Positions 34,807 to 38,635 of a stretch of DNA of 64,000 nucleotides are shown piece by piece. Location: assembly GCF_057098645.1 (NCBI RefSeq), contig NZ_CM169472.1; one strand, given 5' to 3'. Below the pieces are notes generated by a model, which saw only the letters and a program-made list of their open reading frames with translations, had not been told where the DNA came from and made no database searches. Every line of letters begins with the position of its first letter. Position 1 is the stretch's first letter. A program made the translations under genes and the position numbers.

Positions 34807-35700
34807 ATGAATGGAAAATTGCAAACTTCAGATGTAAAAAACGAAACTCCATACAATATTCCTTTATTGATTAACGAAAATGTGATCTCCAGCGGAATTT
34901 CTCTGATCTCGCTCTGGCATACCTACGCCGACGAGCATTACCGGGTGATCTGGCCACGGGACAAGAAGAAACCGCTTATCGCCAACTCATGGGTTGCGGT
35001 GTATACCGTACAAGGATGTGGGAAAATTCTTTTAAAGAATGGCGAACAAATAACTCTGCATGGCAACTGTATTATATTTTTAAAGCCAATGGATATTCAC
35101 TCTTATCACTGTGAAGGTTTAGTCTGGGAACAGTACTGGATGGAATTTACCCCCACCAGTATGATGGATATTCCCGTTGGTCAGCAAAGCGTTATTTATA
35201 ATGGCGAAATTTATAATCAGGAACTCACCGAAGTTGCTGAGTTAATAACTTCACAAGAAGCAATAAAAAATAATCTGGCAGTCGCTTTTCTGACGAAAAT
35301 TATTTATCAGTGGATTTGTCTTATGTACGCAGACGGTAAAAAAGATCCACAACGGCGGCAAATTGAAAAATTAATTGCCACTTTACATGCCAGTCTGCAA
35401 CAACGCTGGAGCGTAGCTGATATGGCTGCCACGATCCCCTGTAGCGAAGCCTGGTTGCGTCGCCTGTTTTTACGCTATACCGGCAAGACGCCGAAAGAAT
35501 ATTACCTCGATGCGCGTCTGGATCTGGCGCTATCGCTATTAAAGCAACAAGGAAACTCGGTTGGCGAAGTCGCTGATACGCTCAACTTCTTCGACTCCTT
35601 TCATTTCAGCAAAGCCTTTAAACATAAATTTGGTTATGCGCCGTCAGCCGTGCTAAAGAATACGGACCAGCACCCAACGGATGCCAGTCCACACAATTAA
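34807..35700 (+). CDS. yidL: AraC-family transcriptional regulator YidL
   Basis: C-terminal AraC-type HTH; start set at [12 protein letters not shown]. Confidence 0.85.
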
Positions 35701-37019
35701 CGTAACTCTGGCCAGTACGCTTTGTTGGCCTCCAGCAACTCATCCAGAATAGCTTTGGCGACCGAGGCGCTCGGTACCGTTTTCGATAACGTAATCGCCT
35801 GCCACAGGTGCTGATATGAACGCTGTTCCCAGGCGTCCACGACCAGTTTTTCCACCGCCACTTGCTGACTCATTAACCCTTTCTGAAACTGCGGGATATC
35901 GCCGACCACCAGTGGTTCTGGTCCGTTGTGCCCGACCAGACACGGGATCTCGACCATCGCTTCATCATCAAAGTTATGAATTGCCCCGTTGTTAGGCACA
36001 ATCAGCAACATCCGCTCCTGAGTGTTGAAGGCAATTGCCGCCGCCAGATCGACGATGTATGACGCATGTTCGTCAATTTCCAGCTTGCCCGCCGCTGAAT
36101 TTCCTGCCGCCGTAATGGCGCGGCAAGCATCGAAAACCTGTTTCTCGCGATGTTCCATCACCTCATTCGCGCGGGTATGTTCAGGGTTGGAATGCTGAAC
36201 AACATAATCCGGGAAGAGATAATATTTCAGATAGGTGTTTGGTAATGTACCCGGGTCCAGTGCCTGGACATCCCGCGCTTTTGCATAGGTGTCGTTCCAG
36301 CTCGCTTCAGTATGTGTATCTTGCTGCGGTGGAACATAACCGTGCTTAGAGACATATTGCCGCAGCTGGGGCATCAGGTCGTTGCCCTGCAAATCTTCAA
36401 TTGATGTCCACCAGCCAAAGTGGTTCAGGCCGTAGTAGCGCACGCGCATCTGTTTGCGATCTTGCAGCCCAACAATTTGCGCCATCCGGCTTTCAATACC
36501 GATTGGCATGTCACAGATGTTGAGGATTTTCGCATTCGGGCGCAGACGACGCGTGGCTTCTGCGACAATGGCTGCCGGGTTGGAGTAGTTGAGCATCCAG
36601 GCATTTGGTGAATATTTTTCCATATAATCCACCAGTTCCAGGACGCCGCCAATGGAACGCATGCCGTACGCTATTCCGCCGGGTCCGCAAGTTTCCTGAC
36701 CAACAACGCCGTGGCGCAGCGGGATTTTTTCATCCAGTTCGCGCATCGGGTATTTGCCGACGCGGATGTGCGCCATGACAAAATCAACGTCGCTGAATGC
36801 CACTTCAGGATCGGTGGTGTAACTAAACTCAATGTCCGGCGCTTTCTCTTTAAGGATGACTTTACAGGCTTCGGCAATCACTTCCTGCCGCGCACCATCG
36901 TTATCATAAAATTTCAGTGCACGAAGCGGGAAACGGTCCTGATTCGCCAGGAGCATCAACACGATGCCTGGCGTAAAGGTGCTTCCACCGCCAGCGACAA
37001 CCACTGAGAATTTGGTCAT
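35697..37019 (-). CDS. glvA: 6-phospho-alpha-glucosidase (GH4; GlvA/GlvG-like), intact
   Basis: 440 aa ORF with N-terminal Rossmann GxGS motif ([13 protein letters not shown]) typical of NAD/Mn-dependent family-4 glycosidases. Confidence 0.88.
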
Positions 37020-38635
37020 TATACTGCCTCCGTAATGGCAACATTTTCTGCTGATTGATGAGAATTAATTAAGCTATCGAGCTGTTCACGCAGCTGGGAT
37101 ACATGCAGACCAATGATCACCTGAATGGCATCGCCACTACGGAAGACGCCGTGCGCTCCCAGCTTTTTAAAGACTTCGTCATCCAACGTTTGTGACATGT
37201 CATGCAGTGCAATACGTAAACGCGTCGCGCAATTGTTAATGCTGGAGATATTGCCGACCCCGCCCAGGGCTTGCAGGATACCGGCAGCCTGATCCAGCTC
37301 TTTTTTTGGCTCTGCCGCGGTGGTTTGGCCTCGCGAGGCTTTGTATTCGGCTTTTGAGTAGAGTTTCACTTCCGCATCTTCACGTCCCGGCGTGCACATG
37401 TTGAATTGCAGAATCAGGGTGCGGAAAACCACGAAGTACAGCAGGGTAAAGCACAACCCAATGGCGATTTGGGTCAGCATCATATCCGCGTGGTTGCTGA
37501 ACATCGGGATCCAGTTTTGCGGTAAAACCTGGTCAATCAGACCTCCGCCCATGTTGCCCACCACACCAAAGAGATACATTACGGTCGACATTGAGGCCGC
37601 CAGCACGGCGTGTACCGCAAACAGCAACGGTGAAATGAACAGGAAGGTAAATTCCAGCGGTTCGGTAATTCCCACCAGCATGGCGGTTAAGGTTGCGGGA
37701 ATCAGCAAGCCCGCCACTTTTACCCGATTTTCCGGTGCGGCAGTGAAGTACATCGCTAAAGAAATGCCCACGGCACCAAAGATTTTTGAGTTACCGTGCA
37801 GGGCAAAACCGCCTTCCGGGAACAACGATTTCAGCGGCTCGGCGCTCAAACTGAACTCTTGCAGATGCTGCGCCCAGTACATCTGAATGCCGCCTTCAAC
37901 AGCTGCCGGACCAAAGATAAACGGTCCGTAGATGAAGTGGTGTAAACCGGTTGGGATCAGAATACGTTCGAGGAAGGTGTAAACCCAGATCCCAAGCGCA
38001 CCCGCCGAACGCAGGAACGCTTGCAGAGATTCAATCCCCATTTGTACTTTTGGCCAGCCGAGCAATGTCAGCCAGGCACAGGGGATCATCACCAGGAAGG
38101 CGATAATCACCACATAAGACGTCCCCTGGAAAATGCCGAGAAAAACCGGCAGTTTTTTATCGAACAGACGGTTATGCAGCGCCGTCACAATGCCGGAAAT
38201 GATAATTGCGCCGATAATGCTGGTATCGAGGGTTTTAATCCCAGCCATCATTGTCAGACCGCTACCTGCCACCGCGTCCTGAGTGAAATCGACGCCGAAG
38301 TAGCTTCCCCAGGTCATTCCCATCGCATTGATGAAATAGTTCCAGGTCAGGAAACTCACCATCACCGCCAGACAAGCACGTCCCTGCGCTTGCTTAGCAA
38401 GGCCAATGGGTAAACCGACAGCAAAAATCAGCGGCATATTACGGAATACCGTCCAACCGCCCTCTTCAATAATGTGTACGATTTGCGCGAATAAACTGTT
38501 CGGATCGGTCAGTGATTCCCCGACAAACATCGGGTTTTGCAGCAAGATGGCAAGACCCACCACAATCCCGGCGAAGGGAAACAGCAGCACTGGCGTGAAC
38601 ATCGCGCCGCCAAAGCGTTGAATTTGACTGAGCAT
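37019..38635 (-). CDS. glvC: PTS alpha-glucoside-specific EIICB component (fused GlvC-GlvB)
   Basis: Start set at [21 protein letters not shown]... (539 aa); EIIC membrane domain plus C-terminal EIIB with cysteine motif (CATRLR). ORF-track start at 38896 is an upstream extension. Confidence 0.88.

Follow-up and report, generated by a model that had tools for sequence, protein, structure and literature searches.

A structurally intact alpha-glucoside phosphotransferase-type operon in Escherichia coli O145 strain RM9872 at the position of the decayed glv genes of K-12

The closest described relative of the locus reported here is the aglA/aglB pair of Klebsiella. PMC5309279 (citing Pikis 2006 and Thompson 2001) describes AglA as an EIICB on one polypeptide, responsible for both transport and phosphorylation of alpha-linked glucosides, and AglB as a phospho-alpha-glucosidase, and it states that AglA/AglB let Escherichia coli K-12 use isomaltose; the same paper, citing Reizer 1994 among others, terms the K-12 homologues 'cryptic or nonfunctional truncated proteins'. 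Clinical isolates of K. pneumoniae are 98.9% palatinose-positive (PMC3877295). More distant in sequence is the glvA (malA)/glvC (malP) pair of Bacillus subtilis, which shows the same pairing of a Glc-family EIICB with a 6-phospho-alpha-glucosidase of glycoside hydrolase family 4 (GH4), and glvAC of B. subtilis is functional in E. coli for the use of isomaltose and panose, its introduction being what enabled K-12 to use isomaltose (PMC5309279). The GH4 6-phospho-beta-glucosidases (Thermotoga BglT, PDB 1UP6; 1S6Y) share their fold family and their NAD+/Mn2+ redox-elimination chemistry with these enzymes (PMC10628242), and their similarity to the enzyme described below is much weaker. Here we analyze a 64,000-nucleotide stretch of an E. 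coli chromosome (the window; RefSeq contig NZ_CM169472.1), in which an undamaged phosphotransferase system (PTS) locus of this kind, consisting of a fused EIICB permease gene, a GH4 glucosidase gene and the divergent regulator gene yidP, is found where K-12 has glvC-glvB-glvG.

The window is a piece of the E. coli O145 strain RM9872 chromosome: its positions 35000-39500 match that genome at 100% identity, and its position 1 is position 4449815 of the RM9872 record. The RefSeq annotation of RM9872 places both structural genes at the same coordinates as the open reading frames (ORFs) read from the window. The glucosidase gene (minus strand, 35697-37019; RefSeq WP_000160119.1, '6-phospho-alpha-glucosidase') is the intact form of K-12 glvG, and yidL (34807-35700 in RefSeq) converges on it. 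The EIICB gene (minus strand, 37019-38635) is the intact form of K-12 glvC plus glvB. Upstream of it lie a control region (38636-38930, between both start codons) and yidP (plus strand, 38931-39647), which is divergent from the structural genes and encodes a GntR/HutC-type regulator according to RefSeq and Pfam. A preliminary description of the window had named a full-length 440-amino-acid family-4 6-phospho-alpha-glucosidase, a fused EIICB of 539 amino acids and an adjacent GntR regulator gene, yidP. The ORF, the GH4 domains and RefSeq agree with the first of these, and the position of yidP agrees with the last; the permease is encoded by a single fused gene as described, but its 539 codons include the stop codon, so that the protein has 538 residues. 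The TAA stop codon of the EIICB gene overlaps the ATG of the glucosidase gene (TAATG), with GGAGG nine bases upstream, an arrangement that fits a single, translationally coupled operon. The G+C content was 49-55% in all 300-base-pair (bp) windows over the two structural genes, 45% in the intergenic region and 37-44% in parts of yidL.

The glucosidase matched the Pfam families PF02056 Glyco_hydro_4 (224 bits, residues 6-184) and PF11975 Glyco_hydro_4C (192 bits, residues 195-415). It is identical at 394 of 439 residues (919 bits) to PDB entry 6DUX, the sequence of which is exactly that of UniProt AGLB_KLEPN, and it scored 750 bits against the B. subtilis GlvA structure 1U8X, whereas GH4 6-phospho-beta-glucosidases scored only 147-215 bits. 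Among 110 homologues, 221 columns show conservation of 97% or more, and the enzyme has the consensus residue at every one of them. The translation contains GGGS at residue 10, CDMP at residues 169-172 (Cys169-Asp170-Met-Pro) and Asn199-His200. We take GGGS to be the NAD+ motif, and CDMP with the downstream His presumably corresponds to the metal ligands and the catalytic Asp of GlvA. These similarities support the assignment of the enzyme as a 6-phospho-alpha-glucosidase of the AglB/GlvA/MalH type, and the old K-12 product name, '6-phospho-beta-glucosidase', does not fit it. The GH4 reaction has four steps: it begins with oxidation by enzyme-bound NAD+ and proceeds through beta-elimination and the addition of water to a final reduction. 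Of the two anomers GlvA prefers alpha, and activated aryl glucosides of either anomer can be cleaved by members of the family (PMC10628242).

For the permease, the longest mechanical ORF reaches 38896 (625 amino acids). We placed its start at the ATG at 38635 (MLSQIQRF), which has a GAGGA ribosome-binding site, yields an N-terminus identical in six other genera and is also the start used by RefSeq. Residues 2-523 of the protein align with positions 1-524 of the 524-position profile TIGR02005 at 957.9 bits (cut-off 607.3); the score of 958 bits against this alpha-glucoside-specific model compares with about 45 bits against beta-glucoside models. Pfam identified PF02378 PTS_EIIC and PF00367 PTS_EIIB on one chain, and the translation shows the motif NNCATRLR, containing Cys469, and the motif GITEPLEF. 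No EIIA domain was found in EIICB by Pfam or in the neighboring genes by annotation. Over its full length the protein is 81% identical to an alpha-glucoside IIBC of K. pneumoniae. Taken together, these data support, by similarity, an alpha-glucoside-type EIICB (TIGR02005, AglA type). The substrate class given in the preliminary description, alpha-glucosides, is therefore upheld by TIGR02005 and by the similarity of the hydrolase to AglB, but the arbutin analogues that it mentioned among them do not belong there, because arbutin is a beta-glucoside, whose name here goes back to a legacy annotation of K-12. The label is still in use, glvC being listed as 'Arbutin specific PTS permease' in PMC2617782.

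The naming of this protein in the public record deserves a separate remark. RefSeq calls the full-length EIICB 'PTS sugar transporter subunit IIB', a name that comes from NCBIfam NF007255, an equivalog of 161 positions. NF007255 matches residues 378-538 only, which is the K-12 GlvB fragment made by a nonsense mutation (see below). A pseudogene fragment thus gives its name to the intact protein, which TIGR02005 describes correctly.

As the preliminary description had stated for K-12, glvG (b4556) is annotated in MG1655 as a pseudogene, and glvB (b3682) and glvC (b3683) as separate coding sequences; the pseudogene measures 815 bp, and all three lie between yidL and yidP. The same stretch in a K-12 derivative is flagged 'frameshifted' and 'internal stop' by PGAP/RefSeq. 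A base-by-base alignment of the window with the K-12 locus, a comparison that had been proposed beforehand, showed that the K-12 genes are not identical, intact copies. The two are the same locus, with the same yidL and yidP flanks and 98.9-99.1% DNA identity outside a 508-bp gap, and they differ by two disabling lesions. The first is the gap itself: positions 35911-36418 of the window are absent from K-12, as the alignment and the junction sequences show. Its junction is flanked by 8-bp direct repeats, AGTGGTTC, at 35911-35918 and 36419-36426, which on sequence grounds are the signature of a microhomology-mediated deletion. The loss removes residues ~201-370 of the glucosidase, and because 508 is not divisible by three, the glvG frame is lost right after Asn199-His200. 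The second lesion is at codon 369 of the EIICB gene (minus strand, 37529-37531), which is CAG (Gln) here and TAG in K-12; the plus-strand G at 37531 is A in K-12, that is, a C to T change on the coding strand. 'glvC' is the portion preceding TAG369, and 'glvB' is an in-frame restart downstream of it. Apart from the stop codon, the EIICB sequences of K-12 and the window differ at two residues (I216V and P238Q).

We determined the state of the locus in 5,426 complete E. coli genomes by megablast with allele-specific queries (55-mers for codon 369), in which each 28-base seed must span the diagnostic base or junction. The 508-bp segment was present in 1,652 genomes (30%), and the exact K-12 deletion junction in 2,617 (48%). 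By subtraction, about 1,157 genomes (21%) had neither and were taken to have lost the module. Codon 369 was CAG in 3,925 genomes and TAG in 348, and those TAG genomes that were listed are all K-12 or laboratory-type strains. With the alignment, these frequencies indicate that K-12 is doubly decayed. The older step is the microhomology deletion in the glucosidase gene, whose identical junction is shared by about half of the genomes, and the younger step is the Gln369 nonsense mutation in EIICB, which is narrowly spread, being confined to the 348 genomes. The contrast with K-12 is not peculiar to RM9872; an intact locus is ordinary, since the glucosidase segment survives in about 30% of complete E. 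coli genomes and the genes already have names in public annotation.

Individual genomes show the range of allele states. O157:H7, E. coli C, AR_0015 and Ecol_881 bear the segment and have all three genes intact. WI2 keeps the segment in a glucosidase gene that is frameshifted. In BL21/T7Express the two structural genes are undamaged and there is, in yidP (6521-7158 of the extracted locus, corresponding to window 38931-39647), a 79-bp deletion with a frameshift at a 7-bp microhomology. From JJ2434 a 3,876-bp block (window 35668-39543) is absent, extending from the final 33 bp of yidL across the two structural genes into yidP, most of which is gone; since a 104-bp remnant of the 3' end of yidP remains, this is a deletion in JJ2434 and not an insertion in the window. 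In all seven non-K-12 genomes sampled with the 508-bp deletion (O104:H4 C227-11, E2865, M3, PM4-5, E9, 2011C_3361 and EC7072022), EIICB is uninterrupted, yidP is intact and the control region is near-invariant, and three of the seven encode the same EIICB protein (WP_000952127.1) as intact-operon strains. The repeated, independent decay of the locus suggests that the module is often dispensable. We also observed that in E. coli C (C122) an IS200/IS605 element (tnpB and a decayed tnpA; 2297-4077 of the extracted locus) stands in place of yidI-yidL beside the intact operon, with a 75-bp remnant of yidL left.

Outside E. coli, the order ibpAB-yidE-GntR/UTRA-EIICB-GH4 was found in Enterobacter hormaechei, Citrobacter rodentium and Buttiauxella noackiae. 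K. pneumoniae has the order yidE-GntR/UTRA-EIICB-GH4, with a Bro-N-domain gene, not ibpAB, upstream of yidE. In Pantoea ananatis and Serratia aquatilis the trio of regulator, EIICB and GH4 genes stays together in unrelated surroundings. Conservation of the trio across seven genera indicates that the intact state is ancestral, and by gene order the locus is the positional orthologue of Klebsiella aglA/aglB. Klebsiella aglA/aglB (PDB 6DUX/6DVV) and the window operon are alike in gene order, in the yidE and GntR/UTRA neighbors, in the gene overlap and in the control-region motifs. They differ in that activity has been shown in Klebsiella whereas the window operon is known from sequence, in the length of EIICB (538 amino acids, with lineage-specific substitutions, in E. 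coli and 540 in Klebsiella), and in the genes downstream of the operon, which are the yidI-L block in E. coli and directly yidH/yidG-like genes in Klebsiella.

The ratio of non-synonymous to synonymous substitution rates (dN/dS) was low in all pairwise comparisons with the window. Against other intact E. coli alleles it was 0.06-0.10 for the glucosidase, 0.02-0.05 for EIICB and 0-0.03 for yidP. Against Enterobacter the values were 0.04, 0.07 and 0.12, respectively, and against Citrobacter 0.05 for the glucosidase and 0.14 for yidP, the value for EIICB not being computable (dS saturated). Genes under purifying selection show this pattern, which, with the intact catalytic motifs, lends indirect support to a working system in RM9872.

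YidP contains the GntR winged helix (PF00392, 74 bits) and the UTRA domain (PF07702, 107 bits), and it is 57-80% identical to the operon-adjacent GntR/UTRA regulators of other genera. A divergent GntR/UTRA gene adjoins EIICB-GH4 in six of six other genera, two of which have unrelated flanks, and yidP is deleted together with both structural genes in the JJ2434-type deletion. YidP is likely to be the cognate regulator of the operon. YidL is a less likely one, since four of the six other genera lack an AraC-type gene beside the operon. In B. subtilis the regulator, GlvR, is RpiR-type and not GntR/HutC. A side observation concerns C. rodentium, which has two tandem GntR/UTRA genes by the operon (2641-4123 of the extracted locus); identity to YidP is 57% for the adjacent regulator (230 amino acids) and 76% for the distal regulator (252 amino acids).

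We compared the control region in seven genera, in which the intergenic length is 220-360 bp. The window has an inverted repeat, TGTCTA-N16-TAGATC (minus strand, 38784-38811), whose half-sites are conserved and whose spacer is variable, and which is a candidate YidP operator. Its family consensus in the seven genera is TGTMTA-N16-TAKACA, and the Citrobacter repeat, TGTATA...TATACA, has matching changes in both half-sites. A putative CRP-like box, CATGAAAGCGATCACG (YATGA-N6-TCAC; minus strand, 38749-38764), is present in all seven genera, with its center 40-41 bp downstream of the center of the inverted repeat in each of them. It lies 48 bp upstream of a candidate -10 hexamer, TATCCT (minus strand, 38703-38708), which is a weak match and has TATNCT or TACTCT at the same place in other genera. 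This geometry would put the predicted CRP box near -61, a class I position, and the inverted repeat near -102. Being in helical phase about 41 bp upstream of the CRP-like box, the repeat suggests, as a long shot, that YidP could be a co-activator with CRP instead of a simple repressor. If YidP is a repressor, the operon is possibly constitutive in B strains, in which yidP is disrupted. A GTAGAY element related to the repeat overlaps the ribosome-binding site and start codon of yidP. The control region is nearly invariant among 15 E. coli alleles, and the few polymorphisms in it show no association with decay of the genes. Two candidate features were discarded: the simple operator motif GTAGAYMTCT, which has just two matches in the window and was superseded by the better-supported TGTMTA-N16-TAKACA, and a T/G polymorphism at the first base of the inverted repeat as a mark of decay, which does not track the decayed state.

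We propose that the locus is the ancestral, undamaged form of an enterobacterial alpha-glucoside PTS operon, orthologous to aglA-aglB and to the decayed glvCBG, and we put the probability of this reading, together with the following mechanism, at about 0.8. By analogy with Klebsiella, EIICB would import an alpha-linked glucoside and phosphorylate O-6 of its glucosyl unit. Candidate substrates, taken from the Klebsiella system, are isomaltose, sucrose isomers (e.g., palatinose), maltitol and methyl-alpha-glucoside. The phosphoryl group would pass from EI through HPr and a separately encoded EIIA to Cys469 of the IIB domain; because EIICB is without an EIIA domain, the EIIA is presumed to act in trans (EIIA-Glc/Crr). 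The GH4 enzyme would then cleave the 6-phospho-alpha-glucoside, in an NAD+/Mn2+-dependent reaction, to glucose-6-phosphate and the aglycone. YidP probably controls transcription through the inverted repeat, and cAMP-CRP probably does so through the CRP-like box at about -61.

Several points weigh against this proposal. The EIIA partner, the inducer, the YidP site and the CRP site are all inferred. A consensus promoter scan of the intergenic region found weak hexamers only and no strong sigma-70 site, so that cross-genus conservation alone carries the promoter model. In a comparison with 11 non-E. coli orthologues, 331 columns are invariant apart from EIICB itself, which departs at 17 of them; the departures include Q263L, R410Q, K414C and P513S and are mostly conservative, mostly in the linker and the IIB region. 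Our literature search found no record of expression, transport or growth, and no alpha-glucoside phenotype tied to the locus, for E. coli with an intact locus, nor a record of YidP function. In standard identification tables E. coli is entered as negative on methyl-alpha-D-glucoside and on palatinose, which, if right, sits uneasily with a freely inducible system in about 30% of strains.

Some of these points bear on the explanation that structurally complete genes lie silent here, without induction in ordinary circumstances. RM9872 would then lack an alpha-glucoside phenotype until a regulatory mutation switched the operon on. The bgl, asc and chb operons of E. coli are precedents, being structurally complete and not ordinarily inducible. 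The missing strong promoter, the missing phenotype and the scores in identification schemes would all agree with silence, as would the independent decays of the module (the 508-bp deletion, the K-12 nonsense codon, the whole-module deletion, the WI2 frameshift and the BL21 yidP deletion). The type strain of E. coli, whatever the state of its locus, is negative for palatinose, turanose, maltitol and methyl-alpha-glucoside (PMC4334874); the sugar table in PMC9145129 concerns E. albertii. However, the dN/dS of 0.02-0.10 among intact alleles argues for use in nature, the glucosidase has zero departures at its 221 conserved positions, and the control region is almost invariant in E. coli, with an inverted repeat and a CRP-like box that are common to genera using such sugars. 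We therefore consider silence possible but doubtful.

It is also conceivable, and in our view rather improbable, that the system is functional with a natural substrate unlike that of Klebsiella AglAB, such as the aryl glucosides to which the old 'arbutin' name points, or a host- or plant-derived alpha-glucoside. The modest identity of EIICB to the Klebsiella protein (just 81%) and its 17 changed columns would be in line with such a shift, as would the acceptance by GH4 enzymes of both alpha and beta glucosides with good leaving groups (PMC10628242). However, the hydrolase shares 90% identity with AglB and conforms to the family consensus along its whole length, EIICB scores 958 bits against the alpha-glucoside-specific model and about 45 against the beta-glucoside models, and the 'arbutin' label is early similarity-based naming with no assay behind it.

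We rejected, as very improbable, the idea that this lineage recovered its intact state horizontally, from a different enterobacterium, and did not simply inherit it: intact (BL21) and deleted (K-12) forms both occur among common laboratory lineages and the EIICB alleles of the two types are intermingled, which points to alleles moved by recombination within the species, but composition and synteny stand against an outside source, since G+C is steady at 49-55% over both genes with no local anomaly found, Klebsiella, Enterobacter and Citrobacter have the operon at the same place in the chromosome, the window is about 99% identical to K-12 throughout the shared parts and on both sides, and other genera are merely 80-90% identical at the protein level, with dS of about 1.6.

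A related question is posed by the deletion-type genomes. Retention of EIICB, yidP and the control region in all seven sampled suggests that the orphan EIICB-YidP pair might have a role of its own, in taking up a sugar that needs no hydrolase or in signaling, although we regard this as a long shot. If such an EIICB were expressed without the hydrolase, phospho-alpha-glucosides would be expected to accumulate. Among eight deletion-type EIICB alleles there were 22 synonymous and 4 non-synonymous polymorphic sites. We do not take these counts as a sign that the orphan EIICB is under selection: alleles of the two types intermingle, so that the diversity may predate the deletion or stem from recombination.

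Other features of the window were noted in passing. Positions 1-7612 lie inside the locus of enterocyte effacement (LEE) pathogenicity island (escU, escT, escS, escR, espL, cesAB, escE, ler and espG). A RelE/ParE-type toxin-antitoxin pair is at 12357-13017, adeQ (adenine permease, 13638-14971) is annotated as a frameshifted pseudogene in RM9872, and unnamed hypothetical genes occupy 22070-25062, between uhpA and ilvN. The D-galactonate operon is missing at 45583/45584, between cbrA and yidX: K-12 positions 3870552-3875301, with most of dgoT, dgoD, dgoA, dgoK and dgoR, have no counterpart here. In this case the roles are reversed, K-12 being intact and RM9872 not. The Rfam families that scored above the gathering threshold were istR (27641-27770, by tisB), the ROSE_2 thermosensor (42448-42520, upstream of ibpA), the small RNA ES036 (47899-47941) and AsdA, the antisense RNA of dnaA (53418-53498); all four are expected for such a chromosomal region.

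Decay of the K-12 glv genes has already been published, so that the finding is correct but already known. A table published in 2009 already showed that E. coli strains differ in the presence of glvC (PMC2617782). The exact window proteins are in RefSeq/UniRef as '6-phospho-alpha-glucosidase' and 'PTS system alpha-glucoside-specific EIICB component', and for each of them at least 1,000 contigs are recorded. The present analysis adds a precise definition of the lesions, the frequencies of the alleles, the order in which the lesions arose and the conserved architecture of the control region. The current understanding of PTS or GH4 biology is unchanged. According to the allele survey, the genes decayed in two steps that can be placed in time relative to each other, and the naming of EIICB shows how the name of a K-12 fragment ('subunit IIB') spreads to full-length proteins. 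K-12 is unrepresentative of the species for the alpha-glucoside pathway, which matters to annotators and metabolic modelers. O145, O157:H7, E. coli C and BL21 carry complete genes of the aglA/aglB type and may use isomaltose, palatinose and related alpha-glucosides. Such sugars occur in plant material, honey and starch hydrolysates, and their use could bear on the gut niche of these strains and on industrial feedstocks.

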